Origin: Myxococcales bacterium
Lineage (GTDB): Bacteria; Myxococcota; UBA727; JABDBI01
Assembly (NCBI GenBank): GCA_023248595.1
Contig: JAHFEG010000009.1
Location: forward strand, 7,739 to 71,738
Direction of reading: 5' to 3'
DNA: 64,000 bases
The notes beneath the pieces are model-generated. The model was not told the DNA's origin. It was given only the letters and a program-made list of their open reading frames with translations, and did no database searches. A program made the position numbers and the translations under genes. This document shows, piece by piece, positions 14,046-35,955 of this stretch (positions within the stretch are counted from its first letter, which is position 1; each line of letters opens with the position of its first letter).

Positions 14046-14123
14046 TTATTTGCCACACCCTATTGCGACTGATTGAAAATCCACAAAATGTATATGCATT
14101 CTATTTTAAAAAACGGAGAGACC

Positions 14124-15185
14124 ATGTCTAATGTTGGTTGCATCTCTTATAAAGACGCTGGTGTCGATGTTAACTATGGTGAAACATCTGTCAAGCATAT
14201 GAAGCCTGCTGCGCAAAGGACCCATCGCGCTGGAGTCTTAAGCGGCATTGGCGGGTTTGCCGGTTTATTTTCTCTGAAAGATGCGCTGCCACAGTTGCAA
14301 GATCCGGTGCTTGTTTCTGGAACAGACGGTGTTGGTACAAAATTGCTGGTTGCCATTGAGGCCAATCGACACGAAGCCATTGGACAAGATTTGGTAGCGA
14401 TGTGCGCTAACGATGTTCTGTGTGTCGGAGCCAAGCCCCTTTTCTTTTTAGATTATTTTTCCTCAGGCAGCTTAGAAAAAAGTCCATTGCTGCGCGTTGT
14501 GCAAAGCATCGCTGAAGCTTGCCAAAGCATTGAGTGCGTTTTAATTGGCGGAGAGTCTGCTGAAATGCCTGGACTTTACATGCAAGGCCATTATGACCTC
14601 GCGGGATTTTGTGTGGGCGTCGTTGAAAGAAAAAACATGATTGATGGCGGTCGAGTTAAGCCCGGCGATCAAATCATTGGACTTGCTTCTTCTGGACTTC
14701 ACTCCAATGGTTTTTCTTTAGCCCGCAAAATTATTTTGGAGCGCATGAATCTATCGGTTCACGAAAGTATTTTTATTGAAGGTCATGGCAATGTTGCACT
14801 TGCTGAAATTTTGCTGGAACCAACTAGGTTATATGTTAATTCGATCCTTTCTTTATTGAATGACGGTGTTCCTATCAAAGCCATGGCCCATATCACAGGT
14901 GGAGGAATTGCGGGTAATTTGCTTAGGCCTTTTCCCAAGGGGCTCTCTGCAACTGTTGACACGCGTACTTGGATAGAACCAGCGCTGTTTAATTTATTAA
15001 GAACCCAGGGTCCGGTGACTGAAGAGGAAATGCGTAAAACGTTTAACCTTGGTATCGGTTTTGCTATCGTCGTTGATTCAACAATTGCAAACCAGGTTGT
15101 GGAAAATTTAACCCAATCTGGAGAGTCGGCTGCTATCATTGGCCATGTCGTTGAACGAGATGGCCCCGTTGCTTTTGTGGGTTAA
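14124..15185 (+). CDS. purM: AIR synthase
   Basis: YKDAGV, GTDGVGTK, GGESAEMP, SSGLHSNGFS, HITGGG; GGAG SD. Confidence 0.97.
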   Translation: MSNVGCISYKDAGVDVNYGETSVKHMKPAAQRTHRAGVLSGIGGFAGLFSLKDALPQLQDPVLVSGTDGVGTKLLVAIEANRHEAIGQDLVAMCANDVLCVGAKPLFFLDYFSSGSLEKSPLLRVVQSIAEACQSIECVLIGGESAEMPGLYMQGHYDLAGFCVGVVERKNMIDGGRVKPGDQIIGLASSGLHSNGFSLARKIILERMNLSVHESIFIEGHGNVALAEILLEPTRLYVNSILSLLNDGVPIKAMAHITGGGIAGNLLRPFPKGLSATVDTRTWIEPALFNLLRTQGPVTEEEMRKTFNLGIGFAIVVDSTIANQVVENLTQSGESAAIIGHVVERDGPVAFVG

Positions 15186-15249
15186 AATCAGGTCCTTGTG
15201 GGGCTATCATTCAAAGACCTCATTAGAAACGCATGCGCTGATGTCTTAT

Positions 15250-16020
15250 TTAAGCCCTATCGATGGGAAAATCGGTAAAGCGCTGCAGCTCTCTGTCGAT
15301 AATGGCCATGAGCTTTTCACCGGCAATATTCGCTGGTTCTCTCATAATGATGTATTCGATGAGATCACCATCTAAAAGCGGGCGATTATCGAGACCGTTT
15401 AAGAGTGGAAATTGGGCACGCCACTGATCTTTGTTGAATCCGTATAAATGCTTGGCATAAACAATTTTTGATTTGTCCTCCCTGGCGGGGATTCCATTTA
15501 GAAATGGATATTTCATGCGCAACAAATGGGCTTCACTGGGAACCACTTTTGGCTCGGGTAACGGCTCGGGTCTAATTTGTGCCTTTAATTCTTTGTATGT
15601 TTGTTGCCAATTGCTAAACGGTGAGATTGGATAGGAAGAAGGTTGCTCTTGTTTGTCATGCCAGCGCAGGCTGGCATCCAGATTGTCGACGCCGGGAAGA
15701 CTGCCCTCTCCTAATTTTTCCAAGGAAAAATTTTCCTCTCCCGCTAGCGCAGGCGAGGCATTTTTAAAAATATATTTCTTGTAGCGTTTATCGAACAACC
15801 CAACATGCTGAATCAGCCCTGCTTCTTCGAGCGCTTTCACGGCACGACGCAAGGTGCTGTCACAAATTCCAAGCAGCTTACTCAGCTCTTTGGGTTTAAC
15901 CACAAATTCACCAACTGCACCTTTGGGTAAAAGAGAAAGTTCAGCCCAAACAATGCGAGCACGTGGCGATAAATGAAAGTTACGAATAATTTCAACAGGA
16001 ATACAAACCTTGTTTTCCAT
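15250..16020 (-). CDS. Winged-helix (Rep/HTH_36-like N-terminus) protein of unknown function, copy 1
   Basis: LSPRARIVWAEL...KELSKLLGICDSTLRRAVKALEEAGLI HTH; close paralog at 34669 differing mostly at synonymous sites. Confidence 0.75.
   Translation of the reverse strand: MENKVCIPVEIIRNFHLSPRARIVWAELSLLPKGAVGEFVVKPKELSKLLGICDSTLRRAVKALEEAGLIQHVGLFDKRYKKYIFKNASPALAGEENFSLEKLGEGSLPGVDNLDASLRWHDKQEQPSSYPISPFSNWQQTYKELKAQIRPEPLPEPKVVPSEAHLLRMKYPFLNGIPAREDKSKIVYAKHLYGFNKDQWRAQFPLLNGLDNRPLLDGDLIEYIIMREPANIAGEKLMAIIDRELQRFTDFPIDRA
15654..15760. repeat. In-frame palindromic elements (RPE/WPE-like plus CCTCTCCCG-type REP)
   Basis: tgtcatgccagcgcaggctggcatccag (15654-15681, encodes LDASLRWHD) and cctctcccgctagcgcaggcgagg (encodes SPALAGE). 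Confidence 0.7.
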
Positions 16021-16235
16021 AAACAATCCTTCCGCTCAGGAGCAAACCTGAACTTGACAAGGTCAGTCGAAGATTTTATGGATTCTTCCGACTGACATAA
16101 ACGGTCTGCCGCGCCTCAAGCTTTAGTAGGATTGGGCGCGGTACTTTAATTGACCGCACACCATGCGCGATCAATTCGAGTATTTAGAATCTAAATTAGA
16201 TGTGAATTTAAATGCAAATTGTTTTTGAAAATAAT
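16021..16235 (-). promoter_or_regulatory. Sigma70 promoter plus structured four-hairpin 5' leader, copy 1
   Basis: ATTATTTTCAAA, TTGCAT (16217-12), 18 nt, TAGATT (16193-88); hairpins colinear with 34465-34668. Confidence 0.65.
16089..16150 (+). ncRNA. Putative cis-antisense RNA to the copy-1 leader
   Basis: TTGACA at 16054-59, weak -10 TATGGA, terminator-like CCGCGCC..GGCGCGG-tacttt. Confidence 0.35.
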
Positions 16236-16270
16236 TTTTCTAACACTCCAAAGGACCGCATCTCGTGTAC

Positions 16271-16936
16271 ATGCAACCATTAATTTCTGACACGCCGCGC
16301 ACACCGAAAAATCCACTTCGTTTATGTGTTTTTGTTTCGGGAAATGGTTCCAACTTGCAAGCACTCATCGATGCTGCCAATGCACCTAATACTTGTTTTA
16401 AAATCGCCCTCGTGATTTCTAATATCAAAAATACTTTTGCGCTTGGGCGCGCGCACGCTGCCGGAATTCCGGCAGTTACTATTTGTCATAACGATTTTTC
16501 TTCACGTCTAGATTTTGAAAAAACATTAATTACGCAGTGTATTGATTATCACGTCGAACTTGTGGTTTTGGCTGGCTTCATGCGTGTGCTCAGTCCTCAT
16601 TTTTTGAGCTATTTCCCAAATCAGGTTGTCAATGTCCATCCTGCTCTATGCCCAGCGTTTCCAGGCATTCATGCCGCGCGACAAGCGCTTGCTCGTGGTG
16701 TAAAATATGCGGGCTGCACTGTTCATTTGGTAAACGAAGGTGTCGACGAAGGACCAATCATTGCTCAAGCGATTGTGCCGGTTTACCCAGACGACGATGA
16801 AAATAGATTACAAAAGCGGATTCAAATTCAAGAACATCTACTGCTTCCAAAAATGATTCAAGAAATTGCGATAGGTAATGTTTTAATTGCCGACAGTGAA
16901 ATTTGTCTGAGGAAGAAAAGTGATCCCGTTATCTAA
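16271..16936 (+). CDS. purN: GAR transformylase
   Basis: VSGNGSNLQAL, LAGFMRVL, NVHP, GCTVHLV.EGVDEGPIIAQ. Confidence 0.96.
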   Translation: MQPLISDTPRTPKNPLRLCVFVSGNGSNLQALIDAANAPNTCFKIALVISNIKNTFALGRAHAAGIPAVTICHNDFSSRLDFEKTLITQCIDYHVELVVLAGFMRVLSPHFLSYFPNQVVNVHPALCPAFPGIHAARQALARGVKYAGCTVHLVNEGVDEGPIIAQAIVPVYPDDDENRLQKRIQIQEHLLLPKMIQEIAIGNVLIADSEICLRKKSDPVI

Positions 16937-19245: not shown

Positions 19246-22200
19246 ATGTCGGACAATGCCATGGTTCAAAATAGCCACACCGAAAATACTTCTCCCTTAA
19301 TGCTAAACAATAAAATTCGTTTTGTGACGGCGGCATCCCTCTTTGATGGGCATGATGCTGCTATTCATATCATGCGGCGCATTTTGCAAAGCGAGGGTGC
19401 CGAGGTCATTCATCTTGGACATAATCGTTCCGTTCAAGAAGTTGTGGACGCTGCTATTCAAGAAGATGCCCAGGGGATTGCCATTTCAAGTTATCAAGGA
19501 GGGCATATTGAATATTTTACTTATGTATTGGAGCTGCTCAAAAAAAATGGTGCCAGCCATATAAAAGTTTTTGGCGGCGGTGGTGGCGTCATTGTTCCTG
19601 AAGAAATTGAATTACTGCATGCTCGCGGTGTTACACGCGTTTTTTCACCGCATGATGGGCAGAGTATGGGGTTGGTAGGCATGATCCACTTTATGCTGCA
19701 AACTTGTGATCACTTGCCAGGAGAACTTGTCTCGTCGCTGCCAAGCTCTTTAAGTCCAAGTGATGTGAATTTTATTGCCAGAGGCATCACGACTCTTGAA
19801 ATTGACCAAGAAGAAAATACGGTAGCTGAATTTAAGAATGCAGCCGAATCTCTTAAAGAAAATATTCAAAAACGTCTGCAAGAAAAAAGTTTTTGTCCCG
19901 TCATTGGCATTACTGGCACTGGCGGTGCAGGTAAAAGTTCCCTGATCGATGAAACCTTGTTGCGCTTTCTAAGTGTATTTCCAGAAAAACGAATCGCTGT
20001 TTTAAGTGTCGATCCAACACGTAAACGGACAGGTGGTGCATTGCTTGGCGATCGTATTCGAATGAATTCAGCGCGAGACGCGCGGGTTTATATTCGTTCT
20101 ATGGCCACCAGGCGGGCAAACTTAAGTACCAGCGCGACCGTAAAAGATGCGCTTTCCTTGTTAAAAGTTTCTAATTACGACGTGGTGATTTTAGAAACTG
20201 CTGGTATTGGCCAAAGCGACAGCGAAGTCACAGAGCTTGCGGATATTTGCGTGTACGTCATGACGCCAGAATATGGCGCTTCTTCTCAGCTTGAAAAAAT
20301 CGATATGTTGGACTTCGCTGATCTGGTTGCTATTAACAAATTTGATAAGCGCGGCGCACTTGATGCTTTGCGCGATGTTCGAAAAACATATCAGCGTAAC
20401 CACAAATTATTTGATCAAGATGTCTCTACGATGCCTGTTTTTGCGACGAGCGCCCATCAATTTAACGATCAAGGCACCAATCGATTTTTCAATGCGCTCT
20501 TTCAGTTGGTTGGCCAACGTTCACCCAATAATAATGGCTGGAATTTTGAGAAATTACCTGAAGGCGATCCAGAGATTCACCCCATCATCCCTGCAGTTCG
20601 CGCACGTTATTTAAGTGAAATATCCAATCAGATTCGCTCTTATCATGACCATCTCGACAATGAAGCCGAAGCTGCCGATAAGGCACAAGCTTGTTCCATT
20701 GCGCTTTCAGAAATGCATGCGAGAAAACACGGCGATAAGGCCATGAAAATCCTCAACGAGTTGGCCACTGAATTAACCCAAAATTTAAATGCCGAGACAA
20801 AAAGAAATATCGAACAATTTAACCAGTTTCACACTCATTATGAAAGTAAAACCCACAAGTATGTTGTTCGGGGGAAAACGGTTGAAGTCAATAATTTTGA
20901 AACCTCGCTAAGTCATCAACCTATCCCTAAAATCGCTCTACCCCATTTAAAAAGCTGGGGTGACCAACTTCGTTTTATGCAGCTGGAAAACTTGCCAGGC
21001 TATTTTCCTTATACTGCTGGTGTATTTCCATTTAAGCGACAAGGCGAAGATCCGGCGCGTATGTTTGCTGGTGAAGGCATGCCCGAACGCACCAACAAGC
21101 GATTTCACTATTTATCTTTAGACCAAAGCGCCAAGCGCTTATCAACAGCTTTTGATTCCACCACACTTTATGGCGCAGATCCAGACTTGCGTCCTGATAT
21201 TTACGGAAAAATTGGTAATGCCGGTGTTTCAGTTTGTTCATTAGACGACGCCAAGCGTCTTTATTCTGGATTTGATTTGTGTTCGCCGAGCACTTCAGTA
21301 TCCATGACGATTAATGGCCCAGCTCCGACCGTTTTAGCTTTTTTTCTAAACGCTGCCATTGATGCAGCCTGTGAGCGCGAATTAAAAGCAAGTGGACAAT
21401 GGGAAGAGAGTGAAGAAAAAATATTTGAATGGTTCGCACTTCGTGGCGTTGGTCGACCTATTTATCGTGCACAAGATTTGCCACAAGGTCATGACGGAAT
21501 GGGCCTTGGCTTTTTAGGTCTACCCGCTGATTTGATCGTAGATACAAAATTTTATAACAAAATAAAAAAAGAAGTTTTAGAGGCAATTCGCGGGACTGTG
21601 CAGGCTGACATCCTAAAAGAAGATCAAGCACAAAACACGTGTATTTTTTCCACTGAATTTGCATTGCGCATGATGGGCGATGTGCAACAATATTTCATAG
21701 AAAATAATGTTCATAATTTTTATAGCGTCAGCATTAGTGGCTATCATATTGCTGAGGCAGGCGCTAATCCTATTACGCAGTTGGCTTTAACCTTGGCGAA
21801 TGGTTTTACGCTGGTTGAGTACTATCGCGCGCGCGGCATGGATATTAATGCTTTTGCTTCCAACTTAAGTTTCTTTTTTTCCAATGGGCTAGACCCTGAA
21901 TACAGCGTTATTGGACGAGTTGCTCGTCGTATTTGGGCAATTGCGATGCGTGACCTATATCAAGCCGACGATCTTAGCCAAAAGCTCAAATATCATATCC
22001 AAACATCTGGTCGCTCTTTGCACGCACAAGAAATTAATTTCAACGATATTCGCACCACTCTGCAGGCCTTGTACGCTATCATGGATAATTGCAATTCGCT
22101 GCATACCAATGCTTACGATGAAGCCATCACCACACCGACCGAAGAATCCGTGCGTAGAGCGCTTGCGATCCAACTAATTATTTATCGAGAACTGGGCCTC

Positions 22201-22689
22201 ACTAAAAATGAAAATCCTTGGCAAGGCAGTTATTTCATTGAATATATGACCAATTTAGTCGAGGAGGCCGTGTTAAAAGAATTTGAAGCCCTCGATTCTA
22301 GGGGCGGTGTTCTTGGTGCCATGGAAACAATGTATCAACGTAGTAAAATCCAAGAAGAAAGCATGTACTATGAAAATAAAAAAATGAACGGCGAGCTTCC
22401 TATCATCGGTGTAAACACATTTTTAAATGATCAGAAAAACCAAGAGCCAGCCAAAACTGAACTCATCCGTTCCACCGCAGAAGAGAAAGATTGGCAGGTC
22501 GAACAAGTAAAAGAGCTGGCAAAACTTTGGGAAAAGGAAAGTGCACAAGCAATCGAGGCTTTGAAAAAAACAGCGTTCTTGGGCCAAAATATTTTTACAG
22601 AGCTCATGGAGGCCAGCAAATATTGCACCCTGGGTGTCATCACTGAAGCACTCTATGAAGTTGGCGGTGCCTACCGAAGAGGAATGTAA
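19246..22689 (+). CDS. icmF: Fused isobutyryl-CoA mutase/MeaB-like GTPase
   Basis: B12-binding DGHDAA, P-loop GTGGAGKSS, ETAGIGQ, mutase RLSTAFDS, GTVQADILKEDQAQN, YHIQTSGRSLH. Confidence 0.96.
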   Translation: MSDNAMVQNSHTENTSPLMLNNKIRFVTAASLFDGHDAAIHIMRRILQSEGAEVIHLGHNRSVQEVVDAAIQEDAQGIAISSYQGGHIEYFTYVLELLKKNGASHIKVFGGGGGVIVPEEIELLHARGVTRVFSPHDGQSMGLVGMIHFMLQTCDHLPGELVSSLPSSLSPSDVNFIARGITTLEIDQEENTVAEFKNAAESLKENIQKRLQEKSFCPVIGITGTGGAGKSSLIDETLLRFLSVFPEKRIAVLSVDPTRKRTGGALLGDRIRMNSARDARVYIRSMATRRANLSTSATVKDALSLLKVSNYDVVILETAGIGQSDSEVTELADICVYVMTPEYGASSQLEKIDMLDFADLVAINKFDKRGALDALRDVRKTYQRNHKLFDQDVSTMPVFATSAHQFNDQGTNRFFNALFQLVGQRSPNNNGWNFEKLPEGDPEIHPIIPAVRARYLSEISNQIRSYHDHLDNEAEAADKAQACSIALSEMHARKHGDKAMKILNELATELTQNLNAETKRNIEQFNQFHTHYESKTHKYVVRGKTVEVNNFETSLSHQPIPKIALPHLKSWGDQLRFMQLENLPGYFPYTAGVFPFKRQGEDPARMFAGEGMPERTNKRFHYLSLDQSAKRLSTAFDSTTLYGADPDLRPDIYGKIGNAGVSVCSLDDAKRLYSGFDLCSPSTSVSMTINGPAPTVLAFFLNAAIDAACERELKASGQWEESEEKIFEWFALRGVGRPIYRAQDLPQGHDGMGLGFLGLPADLIVDTKFYNKIKKEVLEAIRGTVQADILKEDQAQNTCIFSTEFALRMMGDVQQYFIENNVHNFYSVSISGYHIAEAGANPITQLALTLANGFTLVEYYRARGMDINAFASNLSFFFSNGLDPEYSVIGRVARRIWAIAMRDLYQADDLSQKLKYHIQTSGRSLHAQEINFNDIRTTLQALYAIMDNCNSLHTNAYDEAITTPTEESVRRALAIQLIIYRELGLTKNENPWQGSYFIEYMTNLVEEAVLKEFEALDSRGGVLGAMETMYQRSKIQEESMYYENKKMNGELPIIGVNTFLNDQKNQEPAKTELIRSTAEEKDWQVEQVKELAKLWEKESAQAIEALKKTAFLGQNIFTELMEASKYCTLGVITEALYEVGGAYRRGM

Positions 22690-24617: not shown

Positions 24618-25013
24618 TTAAAGCAAAGTAAAATTAGCCAAAGATTTTGTTGCCTGGTCGAAAGAAAACGTCGTTTTACAACCGGCCAGTTCGTTTTTCA
24701 TACCAATCAGAACGTCTGCAAAATCAGCCTTACGATCTTTAAAATCTTTCACGGCGCGCAAGGCAACCGCTTTATCTTCAAAAGCAAAGTGTTTCGTGTA
24801 AAGAATTTTCTCCATCACATCAATAATATCTGTTTTTTGCAATTTGTATGCGCGCGACAAAACCCACCAAGTTTCACACAAGACAATATGATTAATATAA
24901 AGCGGCTGCTCGTCACGGCATGCTTTCTCAATGCGGACATTGGCAATTTTGCTTTGTGCCGGATCATCTTGCACGATGAAGCGAATCAATACATTCGTAT
25001 CAAGCCCAATCAT
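24618..25013 (-). CDS. vapC: VapC/PIN-domain toxin
   Basis: MIGLDTNVLIR, VLCE, ADFAD, TFSFD; start overlaps antitoxin stop. Confidence 0.93.
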   Translation of the reverse strand: MIGLDTNVLIRFIVQDDPAQSKIANVRIEKACRDEQPLYINHIVLCETWWVLSRAYKLQKTDIIDVMEKILYTKHFAFEDKAVALRAVKDFKDRKADFADVLIGMKNELAGCKTTFSFDQATKSLANFTLL

Positions 25014-25258
25014 CGTTTTGCCCCAGTAGCACCCTTCACAATGGCATCTTCCATGTCTTTTATGCTCACGGCCTTCGAAATTTTAGACTTCAAAATACCT
25101 TTTAATTGCATCACATTAATTGTTGCTGCATGAATGGTGACAGTTCCATTTTTTTCCACCACATAGTCTATCTGGTCACCAGGATAGAGATGCAAATAGT
25201 CTCTGATCTCTTTCGGTATGGTAACCTGACCTTTACTGGTAAGTGTAGCGCTTGCCAT
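25010..25258 (-). CDS. vapB: AbrB/MazE/SpoVT-type antitoxin (VapB)
   Basis: ATLTSKGQVTIPKEIRDYL. Confidence 0.92.
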   Translation of the reverse strand: MASATLTSKGQVTIPKEIRDYLHLYPGDQIDYVVEKNGTVTIHAATINVMQLKGILKSKISKAVSIKDMEDAIVKGATGAKR

Positions 25259-25465: not shown

Positions 25466-26332
25466 TTATAATATCAATGGCTGAATCTCTTTCTGAAGCG
25501 CGGCAATTGCTGTTCGAATCAAAGTGTTTTTCTCAGAATCGCCGAGTATTTTGCGATACGCGTGCATGATGGTCGTATGATCCCGTCGTCCAAAATGCTT
25601 ACCAATCTCGCTAAAGCTCATACAAAGATGCTTGCGAACCAAATAAATCGCAATCTGTCTCGGCAATGAAATTGCTTGTGTCCGCAAAGCTGATTTGAGA
25701 TCTTCGCTTTGCATTCCAAAATGCAGCGCAACAGCATGTTTGATAATATTGACGGGGGCCTGTCTTATAAGAGTTTGAGTGGCAGGAGCATGATTCTGGA
25801 AATGGGCATCGAGTTTGTCGAACCTCTGTTTGAACATGTTCTCCAAAGACTCAAGCCTTGGTGATAAATCAGGCTGGAAGTTTTTTTGTTCGTTTCGAAG
25901 CTGAACGAAAATTCTCATGATTTCGATGTTGACCTGAATAGCTCGCTGACTATGGAGCACAGAGGAAAGCATCGCGACTCCAAGCTCAGTAAAAGCCATG
26001 GGTGTGTAACGACTTCCGCCATGCCCGCCCGACTCGCGTTCTACATTTGAGGTGCCAATTTGTGACCTCAAAAATGGCCTGGCGTCTACCTCATAAAAGT
26101 TTTCCACACTTGAGGTCACAATTTGTGACCTCAAGATTTCAAGCTCGTGCTTTGTTGGCTCGAACATGAAATCTTCCGGGAATCGTTCAATATTTCTTTT
26201 AACCGCTTGCTTTAAAACCTTTGTTTCAACCTCGTAAATCTCTGCCAAGTCGCGGTCCAACATGACCTGACTTACTCGTAGCGTGTAGATTCGTTTGCTG
26301 ACTTCGCTTGTTGCTATTTCTTTTTTTGCCAT
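25466..26332 (-). CDS. ORF6N-domain protein fused to a C-terminal DnaA domain IV-like HTH
   Basis: VMLDRDLAEIYEVETKVLKQAVKRNIERFPEDFMF, PMAFTELGVAMLSSVL (ORF6N); LPRQIAIYL...SFSEIGKHFGRRDHTTIMHA (DnaA_C). Confidence 0.88.
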   Translation of the reverse strand: MAKKEIATSEVSKRIYTLRVSQVMLDRDLAEIYEVETKVLKQAVKRNIERFPEDFMFEPTKHELEILRSQIVTSSVENFYEVDARPFLRSQIGTSNVERESGGHGGSRYTPMAFTELGVAMLSSVLHSQRAIQVNIEIMRIFVQLRNEQKNFQPDLSPRLESLENMFKQRFDKLDAHFQNHAPATQTLIRQAPVNIIKHAVALHFGMQSEDLKSALRTQAISLPRQIAIYLVRKHLCMSFSEIGKHFGRRDHTTIMHAYRKILGDSEKNTLIRTAIAALQKEIQPLIL

Positions 26333-26518
26333 GATGCTCTCCATTTGGAGAACCGCTTCATTTGACAACCTGAGGTCTGTGCCATACTTGAGGCACAGAC
26401 CTTAACTGGTTGCCGTTCGCGCTACTTTTTCTAGGGGAAGCGCGCGCGGCTCTTATGTTTTAGGCATGCAAAATCGCATGCATGCATCAGCCTAAATCAA
26501 GCGCTCAGAAAAAAGCAA
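26333..26518 (-). promoter_or_regulatory. Sigma70 promoter plus structured leader with the architecture of 16021-16235 and 34465-34668
   Basis: TTGCTT (26518-13), 18 nt, TAGGCT (26494-89); GCCG..CGGC hairpin 26412-50; AGGTCTGTGCC/GGCACAGACCT hairpin; TTGTCAA; SD-sequestering TTCTCC/GGAGAG stem. Confidence 0.55.
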
Positions 26519-26523
26519 TCCGT

Positions 26524-26952
26524 CTATCTTGGTTTGTTTTTTAACAAGGCCTCAACAGTGAGGACATCGTTTAAATCTTTTTCTCTGGCCATTTTGCGTT
26601 TGTAGTACAAAACGTGTTCGAGTGACTCAAAGGGCAAGCCGTCAATCATTTCTGCTGCGGCAATTCGTTCAGCAATCGAAGGTGCATCTTGAAAATTTTC
26701 CTCTAAATTAAAAGATCCTTCTCGAAATGCTTCAATGTTCTCGCCAGCAAATACAATTTTATCGACAGCGTCGGTAACAGTGACGCCATATTTTTCTGCA
26801 AGTTCGTCCCAAAGTTTTTGGGTTACAATGATATCGATGTCGCCTATTTCTCTTAAACCACGAATTCCTAAAGGACCACTACCCGTGATGGCATATTGAT
26901 CCACGGGGAGGTTGTACTTCTTTAAAGCTTCAAATTTTGCTGAGTTGTGCAT
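26524..26952 (-). CDS. Hypothetical protein, nucleotidyltransferase-like (Pol-beta GS..DxD)
   Basis: ITGSGPLGIRGLREIGDIDIIV; REKDLND C-terminal helix. Confidence 0.6.
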   Translation of the reverse strand: MHNSAKFEALKKYNLPVDQYAITGSGPLGIRGLREIGDIDIIVTQKLWDELAEKYGVTVTDAVDKIVFAGENIEAFREGSFNLEENFQDAPSIAERIAAAEMIDGLPFESLEHVLYYKRKMAREKDLNDVLTVEALLKNKPR

Positions 26953-26955
26953 AAA

Positions 26956-27031
26956 TGGAGCCGACAGCCAGAATCGAACTGGCGACCTACTGTTTACGAA
27001 ACAGTTGCTCTACCAACTGAGCTATGTCGGC
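26956..27031 (-). tRNA. tRNA-Thr(CGT)
   Basis: Reverse complement GCCGACATAGCTCAGTTGGTAGAGC-ACTGT-TTCGTAA-ACAGT...GTTCGATTC...GTCGGCTCCA. Confidence 0.97.
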
Positions 27032-34464: not shown

Positions 34465-34668
34465 ATTATTTTCAAATTTTAATTGCTTTCAATTTGGTTT
34501 TTAATTTATGGTCTTCTTACTGCTTTGATTCACATGGTGTGCATCAAAAAAAGTACCGCGCCCTAATCTGACAAAAGTTGAGGCGCGGCAGATTCACCTA
34601 AGAACCGGGGCGAAAATTAGCACTCCGGTTCTTGTTGTCAAGCTTTGTCGAAAAAGCTTGGAGTGTTT
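34465..34668 (+). promoter_or_regulatory. Sigma70 promoter plus structured four-hairpin leader, copy 2
   Basis: ATTATTTTCAAA, TTGCTT (34483-88), 18 nt, TATGGT (34507-12); hairpins covary with copy 1. Confidence 0.65.
34545..34607 (-). ncRNA. Putative cis-antisense RNA to the copy-2 leader
   Basis: Minus-strand TTGACA (34641-36), 16 nt, TGc-TAATTT; terminator CCGCGCC..GGCGCGG-tac-T7. Confidence 0.45.
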
Positions 34669-35493
34669 ATGGAAAACAAAGTTTGTATCCCCCTCGATAT
34701 TATTCGCAACTTTAATTTGTCGCCACGGGCTCGTATTGTTTGGGCAGAGCTTTCTTTGTTGCCCAAAGGTGCTGTTGGCGAGTTCGTCGTTAAAATAAAA
34801 GAGCTAAGTCAACTTTTGGGAATTTGTGACAGTACCTTGCGTCGTGCTGTGAAAGCGCTCGAAGAAGCGGGGCTGATCCAGTGTGTTGGGCTTTTTGAAA
34901 AACGCCACAAGGAATATGTGTTTAAAAACGCCGAGGAAGTGCTGATGGATTGTCATTCCGGACTCGTTCCGGAATCCATCCCAAGCACTGAAAACCTGGA
35001 TGCCAGCCTGCGCTGGCATGACAAAGAAGAAACGCCAATTCCCAGCGTCGACAGCCTGGATGCCAGCCTGCGCTGGCATGACAAACAAGAGCAGCCTTCT
35101 TCCCATCCAATTACGCCGTTTAGTAATTGGCAACAAACATACAAAGAATTAAAAGCACAAATGAAACCCGAGCCCACACCAAAGCCAGAACAAAAAGTGG
35201 ACCTAAGTGAAACTGATTTGCTGCGCATGAAATATCGATTTGCCAATGGAAAACCCTGCAGTGATGACAAACCCAAACTTGCTTACGCCCAGCAGTTGTA
35301 CAACTTTTATCAAAATCAATGGCGTGCTCAATTTCCACTTTTAAACGGTCTCGATAACCGTCCGCTTTTAGATGCTGGTCTCATCGAATATATTATCATG
35401 AACGAACCAGCAAATATTGCCGGTGAAAAAATGATGGACATCGTCGATAAAGAGCTACAACGCTTTACCGACTTTCCTGTCGACAGGGCTTAA
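34669..35493 (+). CDS. Winged-helix protein of unknown function, copy 2
   Basis: GGAG SD; highly similar to 15250-16020 except in the central linker. Confidence 0.75.
   Translation: MENKVCIPLDIIRNFNLSPRARIVWAELSLLPKGAVGEFVVKIKELSQLLGICDSTLRRAVKALEEAGLIQCVGLFEKRHKEYVFKNAEEVLMDCHSGLVPESIPSTENLDASLRWHDKEETPIPSVDSLDASLRWHDKQEQPSSHPITPFSNWQQTYKELKAQMKPEPTPKPEQKVDLSETDLLRMKYRFANGKPCSDDKPKLAYAQQLYNFYQNQWRAQFPLLNGLDNRPLLDAGLIEYIIMNEPANIAGEKMMDIVDKELQRFTDFPVDRA
34951..35085. repeat. In-frame RPE/WPE-like palindromes; 31-bp unit repeated at 60-bp period
   Basis: tgtcattccggactcgttccggaatcca (34951-78); cctggatgccagcctgcgctggcatgacaaa at 34995 and 35055. Confidence 0.8.
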
Positions 35494-35619: not shown

Positions 35620-35955
35620 TTAAATATGCTCTAATTTGTCTATTTTGGCTGCACAGATGAAATCGTTATCAGATAAACCCTGTATTGCGTGTGTCGTATA
35701 AGTTACACGGCATGAATTATAGGCAACCACTAGGTCTGGATGATGATCTTCACGATGTGACAAAAAAGCAACCGCGTTTACAAAAGCCATGGTGTGGTAA
35801 TAATTTCTAAACGTATAATATTTCCCAATTGATTTGCCATCACTGTCAAGATTCCATTTATCAAGGCTTGCTAGGAGTTTTTTTGCTTCATCTTGGGTGA
35901 GAGGCGTTACGCCTCCTTCACAGGGAGCGCAATGTTTTTGATGTAAACTTGTCAT
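35620..35955 (-). CDS. phhB: Pterin-4-alpha-carbinolamine dehydratase
   Basis: CAPCEGG, EDHHPDL, THAIQGLSDNDFICAAKID. Confidence 0.94.
   Translation of the reverse strand: MTSLHQKHCAPCEGGVTPLTQDEAKKLLASLDKWNLDSDGKSIGKYYTFRNYYHTMAFVNAVAFLSHREDHHPDLVVAYNSCRVTYTTHAIQGLSDNDFICAAKIDKLEHI

Follow-up and report, generated by a model that had tools for sequence, protein, structure and literature searches.

The stretch of DNA analysed here, referred to as the window, comprises 64,000 nucleotides (nt) of contig JAHFEG010000009.1 (positions 7,739 to 71,738, forward strand) of the Myxococcales bacterium assembly GCA_023248595.1. Two genes of the window, both coding for winged-helix proteins, are each preceded by a long structured leader, within which sequences resembling a promoter and an intrinsic terminator can be read on the opposite strand. 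An earlier reading of the sequence alone, hereafter the original prediction, had proposed that these leaders contain four hairpins and encode a small antisense RNA, and that three copies of the arrangement are present. The copies at 16235-16021 and 34465-34668 are designated copies 1 and 2, and a distant candidate at 26348-26514 is designated copy 3. The features of copies 1 and 2 are listed below in window coordinates (H1 to H4, hairpins; SD, Shine-Dalgarno sequence; aa, amino acids).

16235-16224, minus strand: ATTATTTTCAAA of copy 1, read directly
34465-34476, plus strand: ATTATTTTCAAA of copy 2, read directly
16188-16235, minus strand: sense promoter region of copy 1 (-35 TTGCAT at 16217-16212, 18-nt spacer, -10 TAGATT at 16193-16188)
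34465-34512, plus strand: sense promoter region of copy 2 (-35 TTGCTT at 34483-34488, 18-nt spacer, -10 TATGGT at 34507-34512)
16150-16174, minus strand: H1 of copy 1, a sense-strand hairpin with the conserved apex C-A[UGG]U-G
34524-34548, plus strand: H1 of copy 2, a sense-strand hairpin
16109-16141, both strands: H2 of copy 1, with a CCGCGCC/GGCGCGG stem and a variable apex of about 19 nt
34556-34588, both strands: H2 of copy 2, with a CCGCGCC/GGCGCGG stem and an A7 tract before it at 34546-34552
16062-16096, minus strand: H3 of copy 1, its loop carrying the putative antisense -10 TATGGA at 16077-16082 (plus strand)
34600-34633, plus strand: H3 of copy 2, its loop carrying the putative antisense -10 TAATTT (complement of 34614-34619)
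16053-16060, both strands: TTGTCAAG of copy 1, with the predicted antisense -35 TTGACA at 16054-16059 (plus strand)
34635-34642, plus strand: TTGTCAAG of copy 2, with the predicted antisense -35 TTGACA (complement of 34636-34641)
16021-16051, minus strand: H4 and SD of copy 1 (H4 TCAGG/CCTGA at 16051-16036, SD AAGGA at 16031-16027)
34638-34661, plus strand: H4 of copy 2, running into the SD GGAG at 34660-34663
16089-16150, plus strand: predicted antisense RNA of copy 1, about 62 nt (5' hairpin GACUG/CGGUC with a U·G pair, then the H2' terminator hairpin)
34546-34607, minus strand: predicted antisense RNA of copy 2, about 61 nt (5' hairpin GGUUC/GAAUC with a G·U pair, H2' terminator hairpin, U7 tail)
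16020, minus strand, and 34669, plus strand: start codons of copies 1 and 2, read directly
15250-16020, minus strand: gene of copy 1, 256 aa (N-terminal HTH_36 winged helix, disordered linker, conserved helical C-terminal domain)
34669-35493, plus strand: gene of copy 2, 274 aa (HTH_36, 28.1 bits; P0001 is 100% identical at 274 aa)

The leader elements named in the original prediction were all read at these positions, with the identical promoter spacing that had been claimed: the gap between ATTATTTTCAAA and the sense -35 box is 6 nt in both copies, and on reading both strands the spacing of the elements proved to be the same. Judging from the sequence, sense transcription would be expected to start at about 16181 (copy 1) and 34519 (copy 2), and the antisense starts proposed near 16089 and 34607 fell at the same sites on re-reading. 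The arms of H3 are unrelated in sequence between the two copies and self-complementary in each. On the plus strand, H2 of copy 1 can be read as the hairpin that terminates the predicted antisense RNA, the U-run behind it, TACTTTAATTG, being weak; on the minus strand, H2 of copy 2 likewise reads as a terminator hairpin, followed by UAC-U7.

The proposed four-hairpin structure was supported by comparing the minimum free energy (MFE) of each leader with those of 200 dinucleotide shuffles. The leader of copy 1 (171 nt) folds at -64.0 kcal/mol (shuffles -43.3 ± 4.0; z -5.2) and that of copy 2 (156 nt) at -55.1 kcal/mol (shuffles -37.4 ± 3.9; z -4.5), and in both cases 0/200 shuffles were as good. 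All four hairpins are present in both MFE folds and in the unconstrained folds of all 20 genomic copies examined. H4, which had been placed next to the SD, does lie there in copies 1 and 2 and is found within this genus, but it is not conserved in other genera according to the cross-genus leader alignment. The predicted antisense RNAs fold at -25.8 kcal/mol (copy 1, z -3.9) and -22.5 kcal/mol (copy 2, z -3.1), and that of copy 2 (as L001:1533-1594) scores 51.5 bits against R3, the covariance model of the antisense RNA described below.

The leader is considerably more numerous than the three copies originally counted, since the 1.99-Mb, 61-contig assembly (G000) contains 21 full-length leaders. 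The repeated unit measures about 1030 bp and extends from about 45 nt upstream of the sense -35 box to the stop codon of the gene; it is a cassette composed of a promoter, the leader as 5' untranslated region and a gene for a winged-helix protein of about 250 aa with an HTH_36 domain. A genus-level covariance model built from 20 copies (R1) and searched in 61 related genomes matched five of them, all in the same family, and none of the 40 genomes outside that family. A cross-genus model built from 36 leaders of four genomes (R2), searched in the 21 genomes of the family, gave 72 matches in seven genomes and five of 13 genera (21, 12, 12, 14, 7, 2 and 4 per genome). HTH_36 was matched in 10 of 10 downstream open reading frames (ORFs) tested from other genera, nine of them above the cut-off. 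Given this distribution and these downstream ORFs, both the link between leader and HTH_36 gene and the multicopy state are old and general in the family, the genomes of which are small in the collection (0.3-3.4 Mb).

Rfam 15 at gathering thresholds yields four tRNAs only in the window and no leader family. The best sub-threshold match (ctRNA_pT181, 19.6 bits against a gathering threshold of 56, E=3) is noise, and none of the countertranscript RNA (ctRNA) families ctRNA_pT181, ctRNA_pGA1, ctRNA_pND324 and ctRNA_p42d reached its gathering threshold. In this respect the novelty of the motif stands, and literature word searches, which cannot exclude an earlier description, found none.

Conservation of the leader structure was assessed in the alignment of the 36 leaders, in which 88.5% of the cells are paired, compared with 77.8 ± 0.6% in shuffles. 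Twenty-eight of the 42 pairs change on both sides (18.7 ± 1.6 in shuffles, 0/500 of which reach 28), and slid controls gave only 4-13 such pairs. The covariation anticipated for a larger alignment was thus found in H1, H2 and H3 alike. The H2 stem is 98.8% paired, with five of its seven pairs covarying across genera, and H3 is 95.3% paired, with eight of 11 pairs changing on both sides. The apex of H1, C-A[UGG]U-G, is invariant, the apical C-G and A-U pairs being present in 36/36 rows each; in the wider set an apex motif of this type occurs beyond H2 in 54 of 61 leaders and is missing in G006, G012 and two copies of G009. Beyond the stems, conservation is confined to the H1 apex, the A-tract, GGCA and GUCAA; variability is highest in the spacer and in the apex of H2. 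In the sense promoter, the TTG of the -35 box and the T-A-n-n-n-T of the -10 box are kept in 20/20 copies, while the middle of the -10 box varies. Pair-type counts on the model-fitted alignments contained too many misaligned cells and were dropped for this reason in favour of folds of the individual hairpins. In these, the sense strand gives the more stable H1 in 40 leaders and the antisense strand in 7, with 49 against 15 G·U pairs; owing to this stability and G·U bias, H1 is taken to be a structure of the mRNA.

The opposite strand carries its own set of conserved elements. The sequence TT[G/T]AC, followed 16-18 nt on by a TA-hexamer, was found in 63 of 68 rows (one of the five rows lacking it is a truncated duplicate), and this spacing holds across a dozen or so unrelated H3 sequences from five genera, with the hexamer situated in the H3 loop. 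TTGAC is kept in 20/20 rows of G000 and in all rows of four other genera. The final T of the putative -10 box is present in 43 of 63 rows (13/20, 9/10, 9/9, 10/12 and 2/2, with 0/7 in G009 and 0/3 in G012). A terminator-like run of at least five T within 9 nt after the H2 stem, read on the antisense strand, is found in 53 of 61 leaders and directly abuts the stem in genera g9, g12 and g13; no U-run after H2 was seen on the sense strand when the leaders were read. The H2 stem itself varies between genera (CCGCGCC, CCGUUUCC, CCGCUUCC, CCGGGCUCUCU), and its closing pair is G-C in 35 and G·U in 26 of 61 rows, a G·U pair at this position being possible on the antisense strand only. The length of the predicted product is steady, 56-64 nt across genera.

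A further feature, which went beyond what had been predicted, is a G·U-rich hairpin confined to the antisense strand. Of 55 distinct sequences, 54 can form it, with 4-7 bp, in the segment leading from the predicted start to H2'. The hairpin surpasses its sense complement in stability in 52 of the 55, falls below it in two and equals it in one. G·U pairs account for 66 of its 267 pairs, as against 2 of 167 in the sense complement. Because a G/U-rich strand always folds somewhat better, composition-matched shuffles were used as controls: the antisense segment folds at -4.30 kcal/mol compared with -1.06 kcal/mol when shuffled (p ≤ 0.05 in 42/54), the sense segment at -2.16 compared with -0.84 kcal/mol (p ≤ 0.05 in 14/54). 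RNAalifold applied to a MAFFT alignment of the antisense segments recovered the terminator only. As the small hairpin is out of register in that alignment, the covariance model R3 was built, which realigned 61 of the 63 segments. In the resulting alignment 89.3% of the cells are paired (77.2 ± 0.9% in shuffles), the covariation score is 0.455 (0.245 in shuffles, 0/500 of which reach 0.455) and all four pairs of the small antisense hairpin change on both sides. Since the bias of H1 is opposite to that of the small antisense hairpin, both strands are under constraint at the RNA level. The elements, their conservation, the covariation and the strand-specific wobble pairing are all read from the aligned sequences themselves.

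From these features we infer the transcription, pairing and regulatory outcome of the antisense RNA as follows. Two promoters facing each other across about 90 nt would be present in each cassette. The one on the sense strand (TTGCwT, 18 nt, TAnnnT) would give rise to an mRNA with a leader of about 150 nt, folding in the order H1, A-tract, H2, single-stranded spacer, H3 and GUCAA, with H4 by the SD in this genus. The antisense promoter would have its -35 box at the TTGAC between H3 and the SD and its -10 box (TAnnnn) in the H3 loop; transcription would start inside the 5' arm of H3 and stop at the reversed H2 and the U-run complementing the A-tract. The product, about 56-64 nt long, would consist of a 5' hairpin that exists on the antisense strand only, a terminator hairpin with a variable apex and a U-tail. 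It would pair with its complementary target in the leader, namely the spacer, the 5' arm of H3 and H2, the pairing being nucleated at the single-stranded spacer and/or by loop-loop contact involving the H2 apex. The effect would be lower expression of the winged-helix gene, brought about by at least one of three routes: the duplex of about 60 bp may be cleaved or may decay, the leader may refold so that the ribosome-binding site becomes hidden (predicted for the copies of this genome only), or transcription from the convergent promoters may lead to collision or occlusion. The antisense overlap ends 35-60 nt upstream of the SD, which makes it unlikely that the ribosome site is masked directly. 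As to the second route, the 3' arm of H3 complements the SD in the copies of this genome, and opening of the target lowers the predicted SD accessibility, typically from about 0.44 to 0.22.

Several observations weigh against an antisense RNA acting in this manner. The antisense promoter and terminator of the original prediction, with a product of about 60 nt, do recur in five genera, but 20 of 63 putative -10 boxes lack the usually essential final T; the weakness already suspected for the -10 box of copy 1 (TATGGA) is of exactly this kind. The antisense -35 box is TTTACA in nine of ten copies of G001, and the U-runs are poor in copy 1 and in five of eight copies of G016. The strand preference of the two larger hairpins is unclear: H2 is more stable on the antisense strand in 33 leaders and on the sense strand in 22, while for H3 the sense strand is the more stable in 24 and the antisense strand in 29. 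The pair counts given above come from alignments fitted to models and from copies related by descent, and for both reasons they overstate independence. The SD accessibility with the target opened is lower in 30 of 51 leaders, mostly those of this genome, higher in nine and unchanged in the rest. In that computation the masked interval was mis-set in many rows, and an anti-SD switch through the freed 3' arm of H3, for which the masking is imprecise and the drop in accessibility was not seen in other genera, is not relied on. In copies 1 and 2 the antisense promoter and the H2 terminator both escaped a consensus scanner; it missed the sense promoter of these copies as well, and its misses are attributed to its criteria (-10 boxes matching at 3/6 positions, an apex over the loop limit and a U-run 3 nt off the stem). 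Finally, the only RNA run among 14 sequencing runs, a metatranscriptome, gave a single contig on the window, 35637-35797, which leaves the leaders uncovered, and coverage of this kind is uninformative either way as to their transcription.

On balance, the sequence evidence makes it likely that the predicted antisense RNA is transcribed and exerts an effect on the leader. A regulatory leader functioning on the sense strand only, in which H1-H3 would bind a protein (e.g. the encoded winged-helix protein, by autoregulation) or set the stability or translation of the mRNA, seems unlikely. Under such an explanation GUCAA, the A-tract and the UA of the H3 loop would be motifs of the sense RNA or of an operator, and their likeness to an antisense promoter and terminator would be coincidental. 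It is favoured by H1, clearly a sense-strand structure with an invariant apex, by the G·U pairs that H3 tolerates on the sense strand, by the imperfect antisense -10 box in a third of the leaders, by the occlusion of the SD by H4 or neighbouring sequence in several genera and by the RNA reads, which cover no part of the leaders. However, it leaves unexplained why the small hairpin pairs on the antisense strand only (66 versus 2 G·U pairs), why 26 of 61 rows close H2 with a G·U pair confined to the antisense strand, why an A-run abuts a covarying GC hairpin in five genera, and why the distance from TTGAC to TA is fixed at 16-18 nt across unrelated H3 sequences.

Two other types of leader were considered and rejected. 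A riboswitch or other ligand-sensing leader is at odds with the lack of conserved junction pocket nucleotides and of any Rfam match. As for a leader peptide translated from the AUG of the H1 loop, the length of the A-tract varies from 5 to 7, so that neither frame nor stop is conserved, and no SD precedes the AUG.

It is also quite improbable that the antisense RNA is made but serves chiefly for something other than pairing in cis, be it transcriptional interference or action in trans as small RNAs with a variable apex and tail. Points that would suit such a role are the convergent promoters about 90 nt apart, the antisense -35 box situated, in genus g13, only 2 nt from the SD, an antisense RNA that in no case reaches the SD or start codon, the lack of conservation of the predicted effect on SD accessibility, and a variability that is greatest in the apex and tail. 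Nevertheless, with perfect complementarity over about 60 nt, pairing in cis is unavoidable if both RNAs are present, and no other target was found. A 10-nt complement between the H2 apex and the coding sequence (CDS) of copy 2 was rejected as coincidence, the mean being 5.4 nt for an apex and its own copy as compared with 4.9 nt for other copies (16 copies).

If cis-antisense control does operate, the question arises whether the copies are insulated from each other. It had been suggested that divergence of the hairpin loops gives each copy its own specificity. The H2 apex and the spacer, which lie between stems that are 100% identical, do vary more than four-fold sites of the adjoining gene, mean identity being 0.46 in the apex, 0.56 in the spacer and 0.65 at the four-fold sites. 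Of 435 genus pairs, 69 have an H3 identity of at least 97%, and apex identity in these is only 42%. The apex nevertheless keeps a common AAAGUU-like motif, 36 of 190 copy pairs share at least 8 nt in it, and the apex lacks any 10-nt match elsewhere in only seven of 20 copies. The suggestion therefore holds at most in a modified form: because both the apex and the tail-target module are shared by just 3 of 190 copy pairs, as opposed to 36 of 190 for the apex alone, any specificity would have to be combinatorial. Reshuffling of the modules by recombination accounts for this pattern as well as diversifying selection does. That the roughly 20 cassettes are individually regulated by a two-site antisense code, composed of 5'-hairpin/spacer and H2-apex modules reshuffled at the invariant H2 stem, is a doubtful idea, though one with which the apex divergence and the 3 of 190 pairs sharing both modules are compatible; if true, the code would amount to specificity of the plasmid-incompatibility type among chromosomal paralogs of a replication-initiator-like gene. 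The YUNR-like motif noted earlier in the H2 loops carries no weight, being expected by chance in about one third of loops of about 10 nt.

The proteins encoded behind the leaders match Pfam HTH_36 at 25.3 bits (copy 1) and 28.1 bits (copy 2; queries with this gene spanned 34660-35493, i.e. three extra in-frame residues), the cut-off being 25. The target ORFs are 232-274 aa long and have a highly conserved N-terminal winged helix, a variable linker and a conserved C-terminal part of about 110 aa. In agreement with this, the AlphaFold2 model of the copy 1 protein (mean predicted local distance difference test score, pLDDT, 74.9) shows a confident winged helix and a helical C-terminal domain with a disordered linker between them. 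Foldseek found no match in PDB at E ≤ 0.001 (best E 6e-3); the matches are generic winged-helix proteins, four of which are titled plasmid initiators or a Rep-DNA complex. The likeness of the N-terminal winged helix to phage or plasmid replication proteins is weak (PHROGs, E 4e-5 to 5e-3, plus look-alikes in the Atlas). The family is rare and has no name, with 35 clusters among 5.8 billion, and a search for related loci with the helix-turn-helix (HTH) protein gave no match. The corresponding search with PurM had its best match, at 55% identity, in a metagenome-assembled genome labelled Myxococcales, and many of those that followed bore the label Gammaproteobacteria, interspersed with other phyla. 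A type I toxin-antitoxin locus was rejected, as ORFs of 232-274 aa coding for winged-helix proteins are not hydrophobic toxins of less than 60 aa.

Copy 1 occupies nearly all of the gap between two purine biosynthesis genes (15186-16264), on the opposite strand:

14073-15185, plus strand: purM, neighbour of copy 1
16265-16936, plus strand: purN, neighbour of copy 1

This position fits a mobile cassette inserted into the usually contiguous purM-purN pair. G001 (same genus, 73% complete) gave no PurN match and so offers no empty purM-purN site for comparison. The neighbours of the other cassettes are chromosomal housekeeping genes, and no prophage context was seen around the cassettes. The units cease to be homologous at the stop codon, inspection of their ends and interior revealed neither terminal inverted repeats nor iterons, and no transposase domain was found, for which reasons an insertion sequence with antisense control of the IS10 RNA-OUT type was rejected. 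That the inverted repeats act at the DNA level, serving a mobile cassette in its recombination or replication (as cruciforms, an origin or integron-like sites), is very improbable: dispersal of the unit of about 1 kb in some 21 copies, the location of copy 1 between purM and purN, the resemblance of the protein to phage or plasmid replication initiators and the invariant H2 stem flanking a variable core, with modules reshuffled between copies, would all be in keeping with it, whereas the strand-specific wobble pairing, opposite for H1 and the antisense hairpin, is a signature of RNA and not of duplex DNA, and the lack of terminal inverted repeats and iterons and the end of homology at the stop codon also speak against it.

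A number of further observations concern the cassettes of this assembly. Gene fragments are found in addition to the complete units, many of them at contig ends. There is one more diverged leader at C7:18852-19025 (minus strand; 79.5 bits with R1). Some gene copies (C6 and C13) begin only at H4 or the SD, without the conserved leader; not every paralog is under leader control. In three leaders, C54:11813-11986, C47:64077-64249 and C35:177-348, the sequence after GUCAAG diverges from that of the other copies; in C35 the gene starts about 150 nt further on, which resembles an insertion, while C54 and C47 leave their contigs. These three leaders have one common H3 class and different H2 apexes. 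The motif GACCGAT(A/T) or (A/G)TCGTATTGC is located just upstream of, or overlapping, the sense -35 box in several genera (e.g. C55, C23, C37, L023, L024, L025) and may be an operator for the encoded winged-helix protein. Small palindromic repeats lie in frame in the linker of copy 2 (34978-35090), in the linkers of most G000 paralogs and in those of homologues from other genera. They translate as CHSGLVPES... and ...LDASLRWHDKQ, copy 2 having two tandem 53-nt units with 60-nt spacing, and the same palindromes flank several cassettes. They resemble the palindromic elements found inserted within ORFs of other small genomes.

Copy 3 and its surroundings comprise the following features:

26348-26514, minus strand: copy 3 leader, a distant and weak family member
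26450-26412 (H2), 26401-26374 (H3) and 26368-26362 (TTGTCAA), minus strand: elements of copy 3; the antisense -10 would be TACTTG
25466-26332, minus strand: copy 3 gene, ORF6N (KilA-N-like) with a C-terminal DnaA HTH domain (Pfam ORF6N 7e-32, Bac_DnaA_C 7e-26)

The inclusion of copy 3 in the family, as originally claimed, can be upheld in part. By eye its elements follow the same order as those of copies 1 and 2, and R2 matched it, with filters off only, at 17.6 bits (E 7e-5 over 12 kb), the next best match in that 12-kb search being 8.4 bits; its predicted antisense RNA, like those of copies 1 and 2, folds into a 5' hairpin and a terminator hairpin, at -25.4 kcal/mol (z -2.9). On the other hand, copy 3 has no BLAST similarity to the other leaders, the genus-level model R1 misses it, and the gene that follows it is no paralog of the HTH_36 gene found after copies 1 and 2. 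Next to the copy 3 gene, an ORF with a PIN domain (131 aa, Pfam 4.5e-8; window 24618-25258, minus strand) overlaps an upstream 82-aa ORF by 4 nt, and the two look like a VapBC-type toxin-antitoxin pair. On the other side, a tRNA-Thr (CGT) gene (26956-27031, minus strand) is followed by a 142-aa ORF without a Pfam match (26524-26952, minus strand) and then by the copy 3 leader, and the region may be a small island at a tRNA gene.

Elsewhere in the window, an ORF at 19246-22689 (plus strand) encodes an 1147-aa protein in which a B12-binding domain is fused to a MeaB-type GTPase and a methylmalonyl-CoA-mutase domain, an arrangement of the fused isobutyryl-CoA mutase type. SD-like motifs were found before 41% of 806 long ORFs compared with 11% at random positions, an excess that supports ordinary SD use only. 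A 16S rRNA gene was looked for in the assembly and not found, and a search for DotI/IcmL gave no match, nor did it give one in any control genome.

The structured leader, together with the predicted two-hairpin countertranscript, represents an RNA family new to Rfam. Its approximately 70 natural variants from five genera of uncultured bacteria provide a data set for the study of antisense covariation and specificity, and counting wobble pairs separately for each strand gave evidence of an antisense RNA from sequence alone. If the interpretation is correct, antisense control of the plasmid style has become attached to a chromosomal gene amplified about 20-fold, which raises the questions of the role of the winged-helix protein, the cause of the amplification and the insulation between copies.

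With respect to function and architecture, the predicted system most resembles RNAII of plasmid pMV158 and the ctRNA of repABC replicons. In pMV158 RNAII, a 5' region of 17 nt precedes a GC hairpin serving as the intrinsic terminator and a U-tail; single-stranded regions are proposed to initiate its binding, helped by the hairpin loops (PMC4485353). The likeness lies in a small cis-encoded countertranscript within the leader of an initiator-type gene, ending in a terminator hairpin and a U-tail (PMC4485353). RNAII as described there is 48 nt long with an unstructured 17-nt tail and covers the translation-initiation region of repB, whereas the RNA predicted here measures 56-64 nt, would have a small hairpin as its 5' part and would overlap the leader only up to 35-60 nt upstream of the SD. 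The present system, moreover, is chromosomal and multicopy and not borne by a plasmid, and there is no sequence or Rfam relationship between the two. The ctRNA of p42d and the Ti plasmids is comparable as a short antisense RNA encoded upstream of the initiator gene; its pairing switches the folds of the repC leader, and it is an incompatibility determinant among co-resident replicons (PMC3155836). Pairing in that account makes a terminator in the repC leader, while no sense-strand terminator is evident here. Furthermore, the protein is not RepC, although one homologue from G006 weakly matches Pfam RP-C, the RepC N-terminal domain (18.2 bits versus a cut-off of 24.4), and the Rfam ctRNA families do not match; the target gene resembles phage and plasmid replication initiators only weakly, and the cassettes lie among chromosomal housekeeping genes.

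Other established systems share single aspects of the arrangement. CopA/CopT of plasmid R1 and RNAI of pT181 are antisense RNAs that bind a structured rep leader, with loop kissing or the loop sequence determining specificity and incompatibility; they are about 90 nt long or more and have separate recognition and terminator hairpins, so that the RNA predicted here, at 56-64 nt, is shorter. In the Sar/ant system of P22 and the c4/ant system of P1, a short antisense RNA originates from a promoter inside an antirepressor leader. Copy 3 is reminiscent of these systems in that it precedes an ORF6N/KilA-N-type gene, a kind annotated as anti-repressor in PHROGs, but there is no prophage context, and most family members precede HTH_36 genes and not antirepressors. 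The hok/sok and Ibs/Sib systems consist of dispersed paralogous chromosomal loci with their own cis-antisense RNAs, divergent recognition limiting the cross-talk between them; their targets are small hydrophobic toxins, as opposed to the winged-helix DNA-binding protein of about 250 aa encountered here. The system is accordingly filed under a known kind, cis-antisense countertranscript control, its unusual feature being the presence of about 20 dispersed paralogous copies per genome.

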